A DNA stretch of 64,000 nt, taken from the NCBI RefSeq assembly GCF_003334255.1, contig NZ_QOWU01000014.1; one strand, given 5' to 3'. The DNA comes from Escherichia coli (GTDB lineage: Bacteria; Pseudomonadota; Gammaproteobacteria; Enterobacterales; Enterobacteriaceae). Every line of letters starts with the position of its first letter. The first letter of the stretch is position 1. Shown here in pieces: positions 944-59,050 of the stretch. The notes beneath the pieces are model-generated. The model was not told where the DNA came from. It ran no database searches and saw nothing but the letters and a program-made list of their open reading frames with translations. The position numbers and the translations under genes are program-made.

Positions 944-2605
944 ATGAGTGATATAGCATTAACGGTCAGTATTCTGGCTTTGGTGGCAGTCGTCGGTTTG
1001 TTTATCGGCAACGTCAAATTTCGCGGCATAGGATTAGGTATTGGCGGCGTGCTGTTTGGTGGGATCATCGTCGGCCATTTTGTTTCTCAGGCGGGGATGA
1101 CATTAAGTAGCGATATGCTGCATGTTATTCAGGAATTTGGCCTGATCCTGTTCGTTTATACTATCGGGATTCAGGTAGGGCCGGGCTTCTTTGCCTCATT
1201 GCGCGTCTCCGGATTACGCCTCAACCTGTTTGCTGTTCTGATCGTCATCATCGGTGGTCTGGTTACCGCCATCCTGCATAAACTGTTTGATATTCCACTG
1301 CCGGTAGTGCTGGGGATTTTCTCCGGTGCGGTTACCAATACGCCAGCGCTGGGGGCAGGGCAGCAGATTTTGCGCGACCTGGGTACACCAATGGAAATGG
1401 TCGATCAGATGGGGATGAGTTACGCGATGGCGTATCCATTCGGCATTTGCGGGATTTTGTTCACCATGTGGATGTTGCGGGTTATTTTCCGCGTCAATGT
1501 CGAGACAGAAGCTCAGCAGCACGAGTCTTCACGCACCAATGGCGGCGCGCTGATCAAGACTATCAATATTCGCGTTGAGAACCCTAACCTGCATGATTTA
1601 GCCATTAAAGATGTACCGATTCTCAACGGCGACAAAATTATCTGCTCGCGTCTGAAACGCGAAGAAACCCTAAAAGTTCCTTCGCCAGATACCATTATCC
1701 AACTGGGCGATTTGCTGCATCTGGTGGGTCAGCCAGCGGATTTACATAATGCGCAACTGGTGATTGGTCAGGAGGTCGATACTTCGCTGTCCACGAAAGG
1801 CACTGATTTGCGCGTCGAGCGTGTGGTGGTCACCAATGAAAACGTGCTCGGAAAACGTATTCGCGACCTGCACTTTAAAGAACGCTATGACGTTGTTATC
1901 TCGCGCCTGAACCGTGCCGGGGTCGAACTGGTCGCCAGTGGCGATATCAGCCTGCAGTTCGGCGATATCCTCAATCTGGTGGGGCGTCCGTCCGCAATTG
2001 ATGCCGTTGCCAATGTGCTGGGGAATGCGCAGCAAAAACTGCAACAGGTTCAGATGCTGCCAGTGTTTATTGGCATCGGGCTAGGCGTATTGTTAGGTTC
2101 TATTCCCGTCTTTGTGCCAGGATTCCCGGCCGCGTTGAAACTGGGGCTGGCGGGCGGACCGCTGATTATGGCGTTGATCCTCGGGCGTATCGGCAGTATC
2201 GGCAAGCTGTACTGGTTTATGCCGCCAAGCGCCAACCTCGCGCTGCGGGAGCTGGGGATCGTGCTGTTCCTCTCGGTCGTTGGTCTGAAATCTGGTGGGG
2301 ATTTTGTGAATACCCTGGTCAATGGCGAAGGGCTAAGCTGGATTGGTTATGGTGCCCTGATCACCGCCGTTCCGCTGATTACTGTTGGCATTCTGGCGCG
2401 GATGTTAGCCAAAATGAATTACCTGACCATGTGCGGGATGCTGGCAGGTTCCATGACCGATCCTCCGGCGCTGGCGTTTGCTAATAATCTTCATCCAACC
2501 AGCGGTGCGGCGGCGCTCTCTTACGCCACTGTCTATCCGTTGGTAATGTTCCTGCGCATTATCACCCCCCAATTACTGGCGGTGCTCTTCTGGAGTATCG
2601 GTTAA
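944..2605 (+). CDS. yidE: Putative transport protein YidE (AAE-family-like, two TrkA-C domains)
   Basis: ORF 920..2605; protein from [23 protein letters not shown] recognised as YidE. Start at the internal ATG. Confidence 0.85.
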
Positions 2606-11257: not shown

Positions 11258-11609
11258 CCGCAAAGCCAGACGCATTGCCGACCCAGGACTGCAGCCGGAG
11301 CGCACATCACTGGCGTGGTTTCGTACCATGCTGGGCTACGGCGCGTTGATGGCGTTGGCTATCAAACACAACTGGCACCAGGCGGGCATGTTATTCTGGA
11401 TTTCGATTGGCATTCTCGCCATCGTGGCGCTGATCCTCTGGCACTACACCCGTAATCGCAATTTAATGGATGTCACGAATAGCGATTTTTCCCAATTTCA
11501 CGTAGTCCGTGACAAATTTTTGATCTCCCTCGCGGTGTTATCTCTCGCAATACTGTTTGCTGTAACGCATATACATCAACTTATCGTATTTATTGAGAGA
11601 GTCGCATGA
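11247..11609 (+). CDS. yidG: Inner membrane protein YidG
   Basis: 120-aa ORF overlapping the yidH end. Confidence 0.75.
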   Translation: MPDSRKARRIADPGLQPERTSLAWFRTMLGYGALMALAIKHNWHQAGMLFWISIGILAIVALILWHYTRNRNLMDVTNSDFSQFHVVRDKFLISLAVLSLAILFAVTHIHQLIVFIERVA

Positions 11610-12103
11610 CAGGAAGTCAGGTCATTGATGCTGAAGAGGACAGGCATAAACTGGTTGTAGAGTACAAGGATGCTCTGCAACCTGCCGATTTTTATCACAA
11701 TTTCAAACAGCGGGGCATCCGCTCCGTACAGCTCATTCCCTATCTTGAATTTGATGACCGGGGCGATCTGACGGCCGCTTCGGTGACAGCAGAGCTGTGG
11801 GGGAAATTTTTAATTGCCCTGTTCGAGTGTTGGGTGCGGGCAGATATCAGTCGTATCTCGATTGAGCTTTTTGACGCCACCTTACAAAAATGGTGTGGCA
11901 GCGAAAACCCGCAACCGCGCTGTGACTGCCAGGCGTGCGACTGGCATCGCCTGTGCCCGCACGCTCGGCAGGAGACGCCAGACAGCGTGCTTTGTGCGGG
12001 CTATCAGGCGTTTTATTCTTACTCCGCACCGCATATGCGGGTGATGCGTGATCTGATAAAGCAGCATCGTTCTCCCATGGAGCTGATGACGATGCTGCGG
12101 TGA
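11606..12103 (+). CDS. yidF: YidF, Cys-rich protein resembling only the C-terminal part of an anaerobic sulfatase-maturating enzyme
   Basis: 165-aa ORF with Cys cluster CDCQACDWHRLCP; no CxxxCxxC radical-SAM motif. Confidence 0.75.
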   Translation: MTGSQVIDAEEDRHKLVVEYKDALQPADFYHNFKQRGIRSVQLIPYLEFDDRGDLTAASVTAELWGKFLIALFECWVRADISRISIELFDATLQKWCGSENPQPRCDCQACDWHRLCPHARQETPDSVLCAGYQAFYSYSAPHMRVMRDLIKQHRSPMELMTMLR

Positions 12104-12110
12104 CGTGCGC

Positions 12111-13295
12111 TTAAACGGGCTGCCCCTGATGCGACATCCGCGTCGCCAGCGGCAGCCAGCACAGCACGATCAACAATCCCATTAAGGTCATCAACAACCC
12201 CAGGCTGCCCTGACCGGTTTGCGGCAACATCGCAGAGAGCGACGCCAGCACGCCGGAACCAATGTTTTGCAGACCGCCGACCAGCGCGCCAGCCGTGCCC
12301 GCCAGGAAGGGGAACGGCTCCATCGCGCCGCTGGTCGCCAGCGGAAACAGCATCCCGGCACCGAAAAAGAACAGCGCGGCGGGAACGAGCAGCGTCCAGA
12401 CATTCATCACGCCAAACCAGTCGGGGATCCACATCAGCAAGCCAGCCAGCAGGCAGCAGATAACCGACTGCCACATTAACGTGGAGAAGCGTTTATTGGG
12501 ACGTCCGGCAAACCATGCGCCAAAAAACGCTGCCGGAATCGGCAGAATAAACAAAATACTGACCGTCATACTGCTCAGCCCTAACACCGCGCCCATCAGC
12601 ACGCCGGAGCAGGCTTCAAAGGCGGCAATCCCGGCCAGACCGCCAATCAGCATCAGCAAATAACAGTTAAAACCGCTGTTACCGAAAAGCGTTTTATAAC
12701 TGGTAAGCAGGCGCGTGCGCGGTGCATCGACCGGACGCGTTTCCGGCATCCAGCGGGCCATACTGAAGGTCACACCAGCACAAAGAACCAACAAAAAGAG
12801 ATAACAGGCGCGCCAGTTCCACATCGTATCCAGCAGACCGCCGATTAGCGGTGCGAGCAACGGACTGACGAGAATCCCCATGTTTAACAGGCTGTTAGCA
12901 TGGCGCAACTGTGTCCGTTCATATAAATCTCGCGGTAAAGTACGCGCCATTACGCCGCCAACGCCGGTGCCCATCCCCTGCATCGCGCTGGCGGCAATCA
13001 ACACCGTCAAACTGGAGGTCGTGACCGCGACCAGCGTTGCCAGCATAAAAATGGACATTCCGACGAGGATCACCGGTCGGCGGCCCACGCGGTCGGAAAT
13101 CGGGCCATAAAACAGCTGTGAGACACCGTAAGTCAGCAGATAAGCGCCCATTACGCTCTGCACCGCCCCTTCACGGACGTTGAGATCGCGCGCCATATCG
13201 GCAATAGCTGGAATATAAATGGTTTGCGCCATCTGACCGACGGCCACGAGTAATACCAACATCAATAACAAATTGACGTTTCTTTGCCTTTTCAT
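12111..13295 (-). CDS. emrD: MFS multidrug efflux pump EmrD
   Basis: ORF 12111..13301 minus; product from MKRQRNVNLLLMLVLLVAVGQMAQTIYIPAIADMARDL matches EmrD. Confidence 0.9.
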   Translation of the reverse strand: MKRQRNVNLLLMLVLLVAVGQMAQTIYIPAIADMARDLNVREGAVQSVMGAYLLTYGVSQLFYGPISDRVGRRPVILVGMSIFMLATLVAVTTSSLTVLIAASAMQGMGTGVGGVMARTLPRDLYERTQLRHANSLLNMGILVSPLLAPLIGGLLDTMWNWRACYLFLLVLCAGVTFSMARWMPETRPVDAPRTRLLTSYKTLFGNSGFNCYLLMLIGGLAGIAAFEACSGVLMGAVLGLSSMTVSILFILPIPAAFFGAWFAGRPNKRFSTLMWQSVICCLLAGLLMWIPDWFGVMNVWTLLVPAALFFFGAGMLFPLATSGAMEPFPFLAGTAGALVGGLQNIGSGVLASLSAMLPQTGQGSLGLLMTLMGLLIVLCWLPLATRMSHQGQPV

Positions 13296-13470
13296 TATCA
13301 CGGATGCTTTTATAAAAATAATTAGAATAAGTCACTACGCATTCCCATAAATGCGGGAGAGGAATCTATCACATTGATGAATGTTAGCCAGATATACGCC
13401 AGGAATGGGGAATTGTTTAGCGGCAGAATATGTAAACAAAAGCGGCAATAAATGTTGCCGGGAGAGATGG

Positions 13471-13506
13471 TAGGGCGGATAAGATGCGTCAGCATCGCAT
13501 CCGACA
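13471..13506. repeat. REP-like palindromic element
   Basis: tagggcggataagatgcgtcagcatcgcatccgaca resembles the REP consensus. Confidence 0.5.
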
Positions 13507-13530
13507 CCAACCCGCACGCTAAATATAAAA

Positions 13531-13558
13531 GGGGAGCGGTTTCCCGCTCCCCTTTGGT
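13531..13558 (-). terminator. Intrinsic terminator downstream of tisB
   Basis: Hairpin ggggagcgg-tttc-ccgctcccc, followed on the minus strand by a T-rich run. Confidence 0.5.
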
Positions 13559-13574
13559 GCGACTTGAATCTGAA

Positions 13575-13664
13575 TTACTTCAGGTATTTCAGAACAGCAT
13601 CAAGCAGTTGCAGTGCTGCAACAATGAGTTTGAGGATAAGAATGGCGATATCCACCAGGTTCAT
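13575..13664 (-). CDS. tisB: Type I toxin TisB (29-aa membrane peptide)
   Basis: Minus-strand ATGAACCTGGTGGATATCGCC… translates to MNLVDIAILILKLIVAALQLLDAVLKYLK then stop. Too short for the ORF track. Confidence 0.85.
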   Translation of the reverse strand: MNLVDIAILILKLIVAALQLLDAVLKYLK

Positions 13665-13898
13665 ACGCGTCTCCTGTGGTTCAGGAGCACTGCCAGCTGA
13701 CGTACCTTTCCGCTGCCTGTTGCCAGCTGTTGTGCACGCGGTATCTCAAGGAGAAACGTTGTGCTTGTTGACATAACACAGTGTGCTCACGCGGGGTTAA
13801 GGCGCTGACGGCACCACCCGTTTCAGCCAGGACTTAGTGCGCCGGGTAACGATGCGGCCCCCGCATAACACATTGCGTACAGTGATATTATAGAAGTT

Positions 13899-13918
13899 TA
13901 CTGTATAAATAAACAGTA
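13899..13918. promoter_or_regulatory. LexA (SOS) box between divergent tisAB and istR
   Basis: TACTGTATAAATAAACAGTA, a perfect CTGT-N8-ACAG. Confidence 0.8.
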
Positions 13919-14026
13919 ATATTTGGACAAAACGCAAACTGTGATCGATACTCAACTATGCACTAAATACGTCAAAATTCGTGCCGAAATTGCGCGTTCT
14001 GCGCGGAACACGTATACTTTCAGTGT

Positions 14027-14101
14027 TGACATAATACAGTGTGCTTTGCGGTTACCAGCCGCAGGCGACTGACGAAACCTCGCTCCGGCGGGGTTTTTTG
14101 T
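14027..14101 (+). ncRNA. istR: IstR-1 antitoxin sRNA (the longer IstR-2 would start ~65 nt upstream)
   Basis: …gttgacataatacagtgtgctttgcggttaccagccgcaggcgactgacgaaacctcgctccggcggggtttttt matches my recollection of IstR ending in its intrinsic terminator. 5' end is approximate. Confidence 0.65.
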
Positions 14102-14228
14102 TATCTGCAATTCAGTACAAAACGTGATCAACCCCTCAATTTTCCCTTGCTGAAAAATTTTCCATTGTCTCCCCTGTAAAGCTGTGCTTGTATAAATATT
14201 GTTAAACACAAAACCAACAAGGTCCCCA

Positions 14229-14327
14229 ATGACTACTTCCATGCTCAACGCAAAACTACTACCAACTGCGCCATCCGCCGCAGTGGTCGTCGTGCGTGTG
14301 GTGGTGGTCGTCGGCAATGCGCCGTAG
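14229..14327 (+). CDS. ivbL: ilvB operon leader peptide
   Basis: ATG…TAG encodes MTTSMLNAKLLPTAPSAAVVVVRVVVVVGNAP (Val/Leu-rich), directly upstream of an attenuator hairpin. Confidence 0.85.
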   Translation: MTTSMLNAKLLPTAPSAAVVVVRVVVVVGNAP

Positions 14328-14351
14328 GGACTGGAACAACACACGATTCCA

Positions 14352-14388
14352 AAACCCCGCCGGCGCAAACCGGGCGGGGTTTTTCGTT
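14352..14388 (+). terminator. ilvB attenuator terminator
   Basis: aaaccccgccggcgcaaaccgggcggggtttttcgttt: GC hairpin plus U-run between leader and ilvB. Confidence 0.7.
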
Positions 14389-14432
14389 TAAGCACCTCCC
14401 GGAAAGTCGGCCCAGAAGAAAAGGACTGGAGC

Positions 14433-16121
14433 ATGGCAAGTTCGGGCACAACATCGACGCGTAAGCGCTTTACCGGCGCAGAATTTATCGTTCATTTCCT
14501 GGAACAGCAGGGCATTAAGATTGTGACAGGCATTCCGGGCGGTTCTATCCTGCCTGTTTACGATGCCTTAAGCCAAAGCACGCAAATCCGCCATATTCTG
14601 GCCCGTCATGAACAGGGCGCGGGCTTTATCGCTCAGGGAATGGCGCGCACCGACGGTAAACCGGCGGTCTGTATGGCCTGTAGCGGACCGGGTGCGACTA
14701 ACCTGGTGACCGCCATTGCCGATGCGCGGCTGGACTCCATCCCGCTGATTTGCATCACTGGTCAGGTTCCCGCCTCGATGATCGGCACCGACGCCTTCCA
14801 GGAAGTGGACACCTACGGCATCTCTATCCCCATCACCAAACACAACTATCTGGTCAGACATATCGAAGAACTCCCGCAGGTCATGAGCGATGCCTTCCGC
14901 ATTGCGCAATCAGGCCGCCCAGGCCCGGTGTGGATAGACATTCCTAAGGATGTGCAAACGGCAGTTTTTGAGATTGAAACACAGCCCGCTATGGCAGAAA
15001 AAGCCGCCGCCCCCGCCTTTAGCGAAGAAAGCATTCGTGACGCAGCGGCGATGATTAACGCTGCCAAACGCCCGGTGCTTTATCTGGGCGGCGGTGTGAT
15101 CAATGCGCCCGCACGGGTGCGTGAACTGGCGGAGAAAGCGCAACTGCCTACCACCATGACTTTAATGGCGCTGGGCATGTTGCCAAAAGCGCATCCGTTG
15201 TCGCTGGGTATGCTGGGGATGCACGGCGTGCGCAGCACCAACTATATTTTGCAGGAGGCGGATTTGTTGATAGTGCTCGGTGCGCGTTTTGATGACCGGG
15301 CGATTGGCAAAACCGAGCAGTTCTGTCCGAATGCCAAAATCATTCATGTCGATATCGACCGTGCAGAGCTGGGTAAAATCAAGCAGCCGCACGTGGCGAT
15401 TCAGGCGGATGTTGATGACGTGCTGGCGCAGTTGATCCCGCTGGTGGAAGCGCAACCGCGTGCAGAGTGGCACCAGTTGGTAGCGGATTTGCAGCGTGAG
15501 TTTCCGTGTCCAATCCCGAAAGCGTGCGATCCGTTAAGCCATTACGGCCTGATCAACGCCGTTGCCGCCTGTGTCGATGACAATGCAATTATCACCACCG
15601 ACGTTGGTCAGCATCAGATGTGGACCGCGCAAGCTTATCCGCTCAATCGCCCACGCCAGTGGCTGACCTCCGGTGGGCTGGGCACGATGGGTTTTGGCCT
15701 GCCTGCGGCGATTGGCGCTGCGCTGGCGAACCCGGATCGCAAAGTGTTGTGTTTCTCCGGCGACGGCAGCCTGATGATGAATATTCAGGAGATGGCGACC
15801 GCCAGTGAAAATCAGCTGGATGTCAAAATCATTCTGATGAACAACGAAGCGCTGGGGCTGGTGCATCAGCAACAGAGTCTGTTCTACGAGCAAGGCGTTT
15901 TTGCCGCCACCTATCCGGGCAAAATCAACTTTATGCAGATTGCCGCCGGATTCGGCCTCGAAACCTGTGATTTGAATAACGAAGCCGATCCGCAGGCTTC
16001 ATTGCAGGAAATCATCAATCGCCCTGGCCCGGCGCTGATCCATGTGCGCATTGATGCCGAAGAAAAAGTTTACCCGATGGTGCCGCCAGGTGCGGCGAAT
16101 ACTGAAATGGTGGGGGAATAA
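14433..16121 (+). CDS. ilvB: Acetolactate synthase I, large subunit
   Basis: 562-aa ORF with thiamine-pyrophosphate enzyme motifs; starts MASSGTTSTRKRFTGAEFIVHFLEQQGIK. Confidence 0.95.
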   Translation: MASSGTTSTRKRFTGAEFIVHFLEQQGIKIVTGIPGGSILPVYDALSQSTQIRHILARHEQGAGFIAQGMARTDGKPAVCMACSGPGATNLVTAIADARLDSIPLICITGQVPASMIGTDAFQEVDTYGISIPITKHNYLVRHIEELPQVMSDAFRIAQSGRPGPVWIDIPKDVQTAVFEIETQPAMAEKAAAPAFSEESIRDAAAMINAAKRPVLYLGGGVINAPARVRELAEKAQLPTTMTLMALGMLPKAHPLSLGMLGMHGVRSTNYILQEADLLIVLGARFDDRAIGKTEQFCPNAKIIHVDIDRAELGKIKQPHVAIQADVDDVLAQLIPLVEAQPRAEWHQLVADLQREFPCPIPKACDPLSHYGLINAVAACVDDNAIITTDVGQHQMWTAQAYPLNRPRQWLTSGGLGTMGFGLPAAIGAALANPDRKVLCFSGDGSLMMNIQEMATASENQLDVKIILMNNEALGLVHQQQSLFYEQGVFAATYPGKINFMQIAAGFGLETCDLNNEADPQASLQEIINRPGPALIHVRIDAEEKVYPMVPPGAANTEMVGE

Positions 16122-16124
16122 GCC

Positions 16125-16415
16125 ATGCAAAACACAACTCATGACAACGTAATTCTGGAGCTCACCGTTCGCAACCATCCGGGCGTAATGACCCACGTTT
16201 GTGGCCTTTTTGCCCGCCGCGCTTTTAACGTTGAAGGCATTCTTTGTCTGCCGATTCAGGACAGCGACAAAAGCCATATCTGGCTACTGGTCAATGACGA
16301 CCAGCGTCTGGAGCAGATGATAAGCCAAATCGATAAGCTGGAAGATGTCGTGAAAGTGCAGCGTAATCAGTCCGATCCGACGATGTTTAACAAGATCGCG
16401 GTGTTTTTTCAGTAA
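16125..16415 (+). CDS. ilvN: Acetolactate synthase I, small regulatory subunit
   Basis: 96-aa ORF immediately after ilvB. Confidence 0.9.
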
Positions 16416-16438
16416 CCGCTCAAGGCTTGAACAACATC

Positions 16439-16471
16439 GCGCTTATCGTTAAGGTAAGCGCGTATTTTTTT
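16439..16471 (+). terminator. Intrinsic terminator after ilvN
   Basis: gcgcttatcgttaaggtaagcgcg hairpin followed by a T run. Confidence 0.6.
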
Positions 16472-16490
16472 TACCCGCCAGGACAAGACC

Positions 16491-17081
16491 ATGATCACCG
16501 TTGCCCTTATAGACGATCACCTCATCGTCCGCTCCGGCTTTGCGCAGCTGCTGGGGCTGGAACCTGATTTGCAGGTAGTTGCCGAGTTTGGTTCGGGGCG
16601 CGAGGCGCTGGCGGGGCTGCCGGGGCGCGGTGTGCAGGTGTGTATTTGCGATATCTCCATGCCCGATATCTCCGGTCTGGAGCTGCTAAGCCAGCTGCCG
16701 AAAGGTATGGCGACGATTATGCTCTCCGTTCACGACAGTCCTGCGCTGGTTGAGCAGGCGCTTAACGCGGGGGCACGCGGCTTTCTTTCCAAACGCTGTA
16801 GCCCGGATGAACTCATTGCTGCGGTGCATACGGTTGCCACGGGCGGCTGTTATCTGACGCCGGATATTGCCATTAAACTGGCATCCGGTCGTCAGGACCC
16901 GCTAACCAAACGTGAACGCCAGGTGGCGGAAAAACTGGCGCAAGGAATGGCGGTGAAAGAGATTGCCGCCGAACTGGGCTTGTCACCGAAAACGGTACAC
17001 GTCCATCGCGCCAATCTGATGGAAAAACTGGGCGTCAGTAACGACGTAGAGCTGGCGCGCCGCATGTTTGATGGCTGGTGA
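16491..17081 (+). CDS. uhpA: Response regulator UhpA (NarL/FixJ family)
   Basis: 196-aa ORF with receiver domain and C-terminal LuxR-type HTH. Confidence 0.9.
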
Positions 17082-30900: not shown

Positions 30901-30995
30901 TGGCGGAAGATCACAGGAGTCGAACCTGCCCGGGACCGCTGGCGGCCCCAACTGGATTTGAAGTCCAGCCGCCTCACCGGAGACGACGATCTTCC
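30901..30995 (-). tRNA. selC: tRNA-Sec (selenocysteine, UCA anticodon)
   Basis: Reverse complement of 30901..30995 is GGAAGATCGTCGTCTCCGGTGAGGCGGCTGGACTTCAAATCCAGTTGGGGCCGCCAGCGGTCCCGGGCAGGTTCGACTCCTGTGATCTTCCGCCA, recognised as E. coli selC. Confidence 0.9.
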
Positions 30996-54659: not shown

Positions 54660-55328
54660 GTGAAAAACAATGCACAGCTGTTGATGCCGCGCGAAAAAAT
54701 GCTGAAGTTTGGTATTAGCGCCTTAACGGATGTCGAGCTGCTGGCGCTATTTCTGCGTACCGGAACGCGCGGTAAAGATGTATTAACCCTGGCAAAAGAG
54801 ATGCTGGAGAATTTCGGCTCTCTTTATGGCTTGTTAACCTCTGAATATGAACAATTTAGTGGTGTTCATGGAATTGGCGTAGCGAAATTTGCCCAGTTAA
54901 AGGGGATTGCTGAACTGGCGCGACGTTACTACAACGTGCGGATGCGTGAAGAAAGCCCTTTACTCAGCCCGGAGATGACGCGGGAATTTTTACAAAGCCA
55001 GCTCACGGGTGAGGAGCGGGAGATCTTTATGGTGATCTTTCTCGACTCCCAACACCGGGTTATAACGCATAGCCGTCTTTTTTCCGGCACGCTAAACCAT
55101 GTTGAAGTCCATCCTCGGGAAATTATCCGCGAAGCGATAAAAATAAACGCCTCGGCGCTGATCCTTGCACATAATCATCCTTCGGGTTGTGCTGAACCCA
55201 GTAAAGCGGATAAACTCATTACTGAACGGATAATAAAGAGTTGTCAGTTCATGGATTTACGCGTGCTCGACCATATCGTGATTGGGCGTGGAGAGTATGT
55301 TTCTTTTGCCGAACGCGGCTGGATTTAA
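54660..55328 (+). CDS. radC: RadC-like JAB-domain protein (YicR)
   Basis: ORF 54654..55328; JAMM motif HNHPSG. GTG start assumed at 54660. Confidence 0.8.
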
Positions 55329-55523
55329 CCCGCTATGCGCGATCCTTCGGGATCTTTGTCTGTTCGGGACTTGAGCACATCGCTGAGTCAGCGTATACTA
55401 CGCCACCTTTGAGAATCTCGGGTTTGGCATTTGGGCCTGGCAATCGAGAGTTCACATAGAACTGCGATGACCGGGCTGTAAAGCCTGACGAGGCGCCAAT
55501 ACCCCATACGAAGCTCGAGCTAA

Positions 55524-55781
<258 letters not shown>

Positions 55782-55798
55782 GTACTTAGAGGAAATAA

Positions 55799-55969
<171 letters not shown>

Positions 55970-55991
55970 TTCTCGCTTTGATGTAACGAAA

Positions 55992-56017
55992 AACCTCGCT
56001 CCGGCGGGGTTTTTTGT
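55992..56017 (+). terminator. Intrinsic terminator after rpmG
   Basis: cctcgc-tccg-gcgggg hairpin followed by six T; the same 33 nt occur at 14076..14108. Confidence 0.65.
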
Positions 56018-56066
56018 TATCTGCTTACCCCCATATTGATTGCATCTGTTCATTCCTGGAGATGCT

Positions 56067-56876
56067 ATGCCTGAATTACCCGAAGTTGAAACCAGCCGCC
56101 GCGGCATAGAACCGCATCTCGTTGGTGCAACCATTCTTCATGCTGTGGTGCGCAACGGACGCTTGCGCTGGCCGGTTTCAGAAGAGATCTACCGATTAAG
56201 CGATCAACCAGTGCTTAGCGTGCAGCGGCGGGCTAAATATCTGCTGCTGGAGCTGCCTGAGGGCTGGATTATCATTCATTTGGGGATGTCTGGCAGCCTG
56301 CGCATCCTTCCAGAAGAACTTCCCCCTGAGAAGCATGACCATGTTGATTTGGTGATGAGCAACGGCAAAGTGCTGCGCTACACCGATCCGCGCCGCTTTG
56401 GTGCCTGGCTGTGGACCAAAGAGCTGGAAGGGCACAACGTGCTGGCCCATCTTGGACCGGAGCCGCTTAGCGACGATTTCAACGGTGAGTACCTGCATCA
56501 GAAGTGCGCGAAGAAAAAAACGGCGATTAAACCGTGGCTGATGGATAACAAGCTGGTGGTAGGGGTAGGTAATATTTATGCCAGCGAATCACTGTTTGCG
56601 GCGGGGATCCATCCGGATCGGCTGGCGTCATCACTGTCGCTGGCAGAGTGTGAATTGTTAGCTCGGGTGATTAAAGCGGTGTTGCTGCGTTCGATTGAGC
56701 AGGGTGGTACAACGCTGAAAGATTTTCTGCAAAGTGATGGTAAACCGGGCTATTTCGCGCAGGAATTGCAGGTTTACGGGCGAAAAGGCGAGCCGTGTCG
56801 GGTGTGCGGTACGCCGATTGTGGCGACTAAACATGCGCAGCGGGCAACGTTTTATTGTCGGCAGTGCCAGAAGTAA
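56067..56876 (+). CDS. mutM: Formamidopyrimidine-DNA glycosylase
   Basis: ORF 56040..56876; start at [13 protein letters not shown]; C-terminal zinc finger CRVCGTPI…CRQCQ. Confidence 0.9.
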
Positions 56877-56914
56877 TTCATGCGCGCCGGATGGCATACC
56901 ATCCGGCATAAACG

Positions 56915-58679
<1,765 letters not shown>

Positions 58680-59050
58680 AGTAAATAGCTGACTTATGGA
58701 TGTGCTGGGGATTCTATGTATTTAGCTGTGGCTTTACCATTACTTTTCCCGTTTTTGACTTAAATAGCAATTTACCCGCCAATTCTTGCTGAACATCTAT
58801 ACTTTTTTTGTATTTTTATGCGATTCATTGATTTCTGCTGTACGTGCAGGAAGGAATCGCAGAGCAACAGTGAAAGAATATGGTTGCTAATGATTTTATT
58901 TGATTGATTTCTTTATTGAAAATCAACAATGTGCTTAAAAATCATTCGGGTCGGATTGCCGCGAAAGAAGTGATACACTAGCGCGTCAATATCAGTGCGG
59001 TATCAGTATTCAGGTAGCTGTTGAGCCTGGGGCGGTAGCGTGCTTTTTCT

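Follow-up and report, generated by a model that had tools for sequence, protein, structure and literature searches.

The 3' ends of istR and rpmG in Escherichia coli carry an identical 34-nt module, which we predict to be an ordinary Rho-independent terminator at each place. Both terminators are known parts of well-studied loci. The history that we prefer, at slightly better than an even chance, is that two long-resident terminators of a common design took their last step to full identity by one old, short conversion, with no cassette involved. The analysis began from a single stretch of E. coli DNA (64,000 nt, the window) and was extended to complete genomes, plasmids, viral contigs and related enteric bacteria.

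The repeat and its two loci

An earlier note on this DNA had reported an identical 33-mer at the end of IstR and again after rpmG. Re-alignment reproduced it on the plus strand at 14076-14108 and 55992-56024, and BLAST comparison with MG1655 stretches lengthened the identity by one base, to 34 nt (14075-14108 and 55991-56024, both on the plus strand, with 41,916 bp between them). The repeat is real. The features around copy 1 are as follows.

13575-13664, minus strand: tisB toxin gene, the divergent partner of istR (RefSeq annotation of the identical MG1655 stretch, mapped over)
13899-13918, no strand given: LexA box TACTGTATAAATAAACAGTA, between tisAB and istR-2 (read in the sequence)
13970-14099, plus strand: IstR RNA (Rfam RF01400, 150.1 bits against a threshold of 45, model positions 1-130)
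14075-14108, plus strand: copy 1 of the 34-nt module (window search, BLAST, fold, terminator scan)
14075-14077, within copy 1: A-tract
14078-14083, within copy 1: stem, CCTCGC
14084-14087, within copy 1: loop, TCCG
14088-14093, within copy 1: stem, GCGGGG
14094-14099, within copy 1: U-tract
14100-14108, within copy 1: DNA flank GTTATCTGC, with TCTG at 14104-14107
14229-14327, plus strand: ivbL, leader peptide of ilvBN, the next unit downstream of copy 1 (MG1655 annotation, sequence)

Those around copy 2 are the following.

55802-55969, plus strand: rpmG (ribosomal protein L33), the last gene before copy 2 (ORF list, annotation of the MG1655 homologue)
55983-56024, plus strand: copy 2 with its longer lower stem (window search, BLAST, fold, terminator scan)
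55991-56024, plus strand: copy 2, exact repeat
55994-55999, within copy 2: stem
56000-56003, within copy 2: loop
56004-56009, within copy 2: stem
56010-56015, within copy 2: U-tract
56016-56024, within copy 2: flank
56067-56876, plus strand: mutM (fpg), on the same strand and 43 nt 3' of the repeat (ORF, annotation)

The two copies lie where the earlier note had put them: copy 1 is at the 3' end of IstR, where the Rfam model ends at 14099, and copy 2 follows rpmG, beginning 22 nt beyond the stop codon of that gene (last base 55969). Two unrelated transcription units about 42 kb apart do share the same hairpin, U-tract and downstream flank, with 34/34 identity that includes the flank. The hexamer acgaaa, said to precede each copy, does so at rpmG (55986-55991), but at istR it occupies 14072-14077 and overlaps the 33-mer. 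To bring the upstream parts of the two copies into register, a 2-nt gap has to be opened in the A-tract (ACGAAA-CC against ACGAAAAA-CC), and an alignment of 190 nt around each copy found no likeness of the flanks outside about 41 nt. A search of the window at up to 3 mismatches found no third site for the 33-mer, and chance matches to it numbered 0 in 100 shuffles.

The RF01400 gathering score was exceeded at copy 1 only, where the model covers most of the long form, IstR-2. In work by Vogel et al. from 2004, IstR-1 and IstR-2 are said to have a common 3' end. The short form, IstR-1, runs roughly from 14025 to 14099, with an inferred start position downstream of TTGCGC/TATACT at 13990-14018, the promoter hexamers listed for it in PMC11264685. 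The LexA box between tisAB and istR-2 is described in the same paper. Rfam found two other matches in the window, a tRNA-Sec at 30905-30995 (minus strand) and a JUMPstart element at 59004-59042 (plus strand). The attenuator hairpin of ivbL (AAAACCCCGCCGGCGCAAACCGGGCGGGGTTTTTCGTTT, 14346-14385), 240 nt downstream of copy 1, has the same style of build as the module.

Around istR the window is identical to MG1655 over 5,061 nt (11560-16620), whereas around radC-rpmBG-mutM (54846-57346) 30 of 2,501 positions, or 1.2%, differ; this contrast indicates a strain that is mosaic relative to K-12. The rpmG translation in the window equals that of K-12, and homologues of mutM carry the name formamidopyrimidine-DNA glycosylase. 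One position in the lower stem of the rpmG terminator, 55988, is a G/A strain polymorphism, G in the window and A in MG1655.

Each copy consists of an A-tract, a 6-bp stem CCUCGC/GCGGGG (five G-C pairs and one G·U), a UCCG tetraloop and U6, followed by GTTATCTGC; in the DNA, T6 comes directly after the stem at 14094-14099 and 56010-56015, and GTT follows it. Copy 1 folded at -17.6 kcal/mol (z -3.7). Copy 2 folded at -24.3 kcal/mol (z -7.3), and there GUAACGAAAAA (55983-55993) is able to pair with UUUUUUGUUAU (56010-56020), a lower stem extension that brings the total to 17 pairs. For both copies 0 of 200 shuffles were equally stable, and a simple terminator scan called both sites terminator-like. 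Both stand on the sense strand at the end of a transcription unit. By these features, both copies are predicted Rho-independent terminators of the ordinary kind. A function on the reverse strand was considered and rejected: the istR fold is weak there (z -1.1), and there is no convergent gene that would require one.

As intrinsic termination is understood, RNA polymerase would make the U6 tract and pause, the 6-bp G/C stem with its UNCG-type tetraloop (UCCG) would fold as far as the U-tract, and the weak rU:dA hybrid would then let the RNA go. After release, the upstream A-tract may pair with the U-tail to give a closed 3' end. Copy 1 would end both IstR-1 and IstR-2 and set them apart from the ilvBN promoter, and copy 2 would end the rpmB-rpmG transcript ahead of mutM.

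Terminator design, residency and copy number

The hairpin core appears to be a generic archetype, found in Proteobacteria and beyond. A degenerate 25-mer, AACCYCGCNNNGGCGRGGTTTTTTG, had at least 120 matches in a scan of species genomes, and those listed came from Pseudomonas, Burkholderiales, Xanthomonadales, Rhizobium, a Bacteroidia MAG, a Clostridiales MAG, Synechococcus and a candidate-phylum (Woesebacteria) genome; the pattern is very degenerate, and a genome with no second match among the matches listed is suggestive only. In enterics, the same pattern also ends proM, STnc180 and rnpB. The argX-hisR-leuT-proM tRNA operon closes with near-identical terminators, GAACCCCGCTTCGGCGGGGTTTTTTGTTTTCTG, in every enteric sampled, and STnc180 and rnpB have related ones in Enterobacter (stretches L042, 10759-10783; L165, 268-301; L054; L091; L094). 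Within this archetype the istR/rpmG pair uses the rarer stem, CCUCGC/GCGGGG with its G·U pair (13 of the 125 archetype matches listed), and its UCCG loop is found in 11 of the 125.

Among the 125 archetype sites listed, pairs with unrelated upstream sequence reach 32-33/34, and none of the approximately 7,750 pairs that they form is a non-orthologous pair at 34/34. The downstream flank is also patterned. Of 99 non-enteric flanks, 24 had a CTG that began 4-5 nt beyond the G next to T6, compared with 9.8 +/- 2.9 in shuffles (maximum 20). This enrichment suggests that the shared flank is not free sequence, and it fits the old TCTG box downstream of terminators cited in PMC8355165. Convergence and shared constraint account for most of the resemblance between istR and rpmG. 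The earlier note had set convergence aside; it was right that 34/34 exceeds what convergence usually reaches, but most of the likeness has this commoner explanation.

We compared the two loci across enteric genera. An istR terminator of the form AACCTCGC-NNNG-GCG[G/A]GG-T6 is found in Salmonella, Citrobacter, Enterobacter, Raoultella and Klebsiella, in all of which tisB-istR adjoins ivbL. An orthologous terminator lies in the rpmG-mutM spacer of E. albertii, Salmonella-like loci (L006-L013, so labelled from their 82.7% identity to E. coli), C. werkmanii, Pluralibacter, Raoultella, Shimwellia and others. The E. albertii 34-mer at rpmG is identical to that of E. coli; no tisB-istR locus was found in this species, hence it offers no outgroup for istR. 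Over the 34 positions, mean identity was 29.2 among istR orthologues, 29.5 among rpmG orthologues and 29.1 across loci. Cross-locus identity therefore equals within-locus identity, and the istR and rpmG terminators are indistinguishable by sequence. In single comparisons, Klebsiella istR matches the E. coli module at 33/34, and Enterobacter sp. Bisph1 istR matches Pluralibacter rpmG at 33/34, while E. coli istR matches the non-E. coli istR orthologues in the comparison at 27-32/34. Within single genomes the istR and rpmG copies agree at 34/34 in E. coli, 31/34 in Salmonella, 29/34 in Raoultella and 28/34 in C. werkmanii, with no excess of within-genome likeness over orthologues in the last two. 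Both terminators thus appear to be old residents, established at their own loci before the divergence of the enteric genera. In Salmonella, 75-80 additional nt stand directly 3' of the istR terminator (stretch L014, about 1190-1330, minus strand), an insertion that precedes the conserved CRP-like TGTGATC site of the ilvBN promoter.

Counts in complete E. coli genomes were low. A 61-mer around copy 1 occurred in 4,396 of 5,426 genomes (median 2 places, maximum 3) and on 0 plasmids; a 131-mer around copy 2 occurred in 5,425 of the 5,426. A low-stringency 43-mer had a median of 6 places per genome. The istR copy is absent only where the entire tisB-istR locus is absent, in about 1,070 of the 5,426 genomes, CFT073 among them. 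In genomes of that type, about 150 nt of unrelated filler replaces tisB-istR (about 13464-14151 of the window; 2330-2500 of the CFT073 stretch, L002), and E. albertii (stretch L163) has the same filler haplotype as CFT073-type E. coli. Its presence in both species suggests an old trans-species polymorphism or introgression. Upstream of ivbL, the filler haplotype resembles Citrobacter more than the K-12 type resembles Citrobacter.

Matches in plasmid and phage collections were set aside as mislabelled chromosomes or E. coli contamination. Two records labelled Campylobacter phage (MG065686.1 and MG065691.1) carry the exact E. coli istR 47-mer at two places each, and a 4.3-kb linear Klebsiella oxytoca plasmid (NZ_CP069929.1) consists of E. 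coli emrD-tisB-ivbL-ilvBN DNA; both cases are probably contamination. The sole match in 2.9 million viral contigs was an exact 31-nt copy, GTTATCT included, in a Proteus mirabilis prophage (L167, 601-631; L170, IMGVR_UViG_2902057438_000018). It lies 66 nt after a lambdoid Q antiterminator gene, the product of which is 72-76% identical to Q of phage H-19B and Stx1 phages, and it may be a terminator in the late-operon leader. A 31-mer in an unrelated prophage implies that the exact variant can arise or travel independently.

Origin of the identity

The flank GTTATCTGC, specific to Escherichia and present at both loci, is the sole hint of exchange between them, and it modestly favours one old, short conversion. 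Its beginning, GTTA, and its final C are common to only three places: istR and rpmG of E. coli, and rpmG of E. albertii. Outside Escherichia, GTTT follows the U-tract in every copy of istR, rpmG or proM examined, and E. coli proM retains GTTTTCTG / GTTTTCTGT. Klebsiella istR reads GTTTTCTGC, ending in C, and the rpmG copies of sister genera read GTTTTCTGG, ending in G; from the rpmG side, two changes yield exactly the istR state. We suggest that, with stem, loop type, U-tract and downstream TCTG box under constraint, the two copies would already have been about 32-33/34 alike in the ancestor, and that the last step to 34/34 would be the GTTATCTGC state found at both loci in Escherichia alone. 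One short ectopic gene conversion between two near-identical stretches of about 30 bp, before E. coli diversified, could have brought this about, and the two copies would have drifted independently since. We favour conversion moderately because one mutation and one short conversion are cheaper than two or three parallel changes, a comparison that is based on just two shared positions. We place a more specific proposal just short of an even chance: one short-tract conversion in the ancestor of Escherichia could have made the terminators of istR and rpmG uniform, and, in a wider version, those of istR, rpmG and proM in enterics could form a small paralogous set and not be products of convergence.

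Variation within E. coli shows the two copies changing separately. The loop of rpmG is CCCG in 1,309 genomes, a state never seen at istR. About 289 genomes carry the flank variant GTTACCTGC at istR; no rpmG copy with it was found, and the top-ranked candidate, on inspection, was istR itself. The two copies agree at 32/34 positions in strains KE55 and TC_EC10, and no conversion between the loci was visible among the 5,426 E. coli genomes. Given this separate drift, the 34/34 identity of K-12-like strains would be a retained ancestral E. coli state.

The strongest competitor of a conversion needs no exchange at all: selection would hold two independent terminators at one optimum of stem, UNCG loop, U-tract and TCTG box, and the Escherichia T-to-A change and final C would be parallel or chance events. 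We consider this a serious alternative, clearly less probable than an even chance. It draws on a ubiquitous archetype in which unrelated pairs reach 32-33/34, on the general enrichment of CTG in the flank, on cross-locus identity that equals within-locus identity, on the identical 31-mer in the Proteus prophage, on the lack of SNP transfer between the loci in E. coli, and on copies that differ in C. werkmanii (28/34) and Raoultella (29/34). What it explains poorly is the fourth flank base, which is A in 0 of 20 non-Escherichia enteric copies, yet at both Escherichia loci, with E. coli proM still retaining GTTTTCTG. Moreover, no unrelated pair reached 34/34 among the archetype matches listed, and our own arithmetic from the position frequencies of the archetype gives a probability of about 2e-6 that a pair agrees at every free position.

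Two further accounts carry far less weight. The earlier note read the module as a small mobile or dispersed terminator cassette, copied to both places. An identity that runs 9 nt past the RNA 3' end, the 31-nt copy in the Proteus prophage and the approximately 6 partial matches per E. coli genome at low stringency might suggest as much, but with exact copies at just two places per genome and on no genuine plasmid or phage, each conserved at its own orthologous site across genera, flanks that have neither common repeats nor other similarity, and matches in mobile-element collections that proved artefactual apart from the Proteus prophage, we consider it very improbable. The genome-wide counts rule out a dispersed, many-copy repeat family, we saw neither element-like flanks nor any presence/absence polymorphism of the module, and the artefactual plasmid and phage matches together with two copies per genome speak against any mobile one. 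The earlier interpretation is thus partly supported: terminators at the 3' ends of unrelated units, yes, a cassette, no. A different proposal, compatible with the others, is that the module is kept alike by one RNA-binding protein of the ProQ type that would read both 3' ends, that is, an A-rich motif beside a hairpin, pairing with the U-tail. Both copies do have an A-tract directly 5' of the stem (GAAA at istR, GAAAAA at rpmG), and flanks of this A-rich kind 5' of the stem are a mark of ProQ ligands and unfavourable to Hfq (PMC7367173). IstR-1 levels are ProQ-dependent in Salmonella (PMC6315103), and in Neisseria meningitidis the ligands of ProQ include the rpmG 3' end (PMC11912907). Against this, ProQ reads shape and not exact sequence according to the cited papers, the RNA does not contain the 9 bases shared beyond the U-tract, the two orthologous copies differ from each other in other genera, and a literature search found no E. 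coli ProQ report on the rpmG 3' end. We regard it as an unlikely cause of the identity; a role for ProQ at the istR and rpmG 3' ends is a lead only.

Relation to known elements

A 2024 survey of E. coli type I toxin-antitoxin systems (PMC11264685) attributed short BLAST matches to the istR 3' end to a common terminator sequence. Our literature search found no paper with the module's RNA sequence and none linking istR and rpmG. The finding carries little biological weight in itself, and it offers a caution: exact intergenic repeats of 30-35 nt can be strong terminators of common design and not repeat elements, and such terminators give spurious short BLAST matches in counts of sRNA loci, as in PMC11264685. 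If the conversion is real, it would be a neat minimal case of ectopic exchange between regulatory elements, and it would show non-coding regulatory elements evolving in concert over a homology close to the minimal length.

The module can be set beside several known systems. Canonical Rho-independent terminators of Proteobacteria, which commonly take the form AACC(C/U)CGC-UNCG-GCGGGG-U6, have the same type of stem, tetraloop, U-tract, A-tract, TCTG box and position, and nothing essential differs. In the IstR family (RF01400), the model's 3' hairpin corresponds to copy 1, whereas copy 2 shares the terminator only, with no further IstR sequence around it. REP/BIME, ERIC/IRU, Box C, RSA and MITEs resemble the module in being short, palindromic, intergenic and present in more than one copy; they number tens to hundreds of copies, compared with two here, where the consensus ends at the hairpin and there is neither variable occupancy nor terminal repeats. 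ProQ-type 3' ends (cspE-3', malM-3' and N. meningitidis rpmG-3') likewise have, beside the terminator hairpin, an A-rich motif pairing with the U-tail.

Concerted evolution by gene conversion is known for duplicated loci, among them tufA/tufB and the rrn operons. The istR/rpmG pair is like these in having two copies per genome with lineage-specific states that are missing from orthologues. It differs in that at most one event is inferable, with no ongoing homogenisation in the 5,426 genomes, and in that homology extends over only about 34 bp, near the minimum for RecA-dependent exchange.
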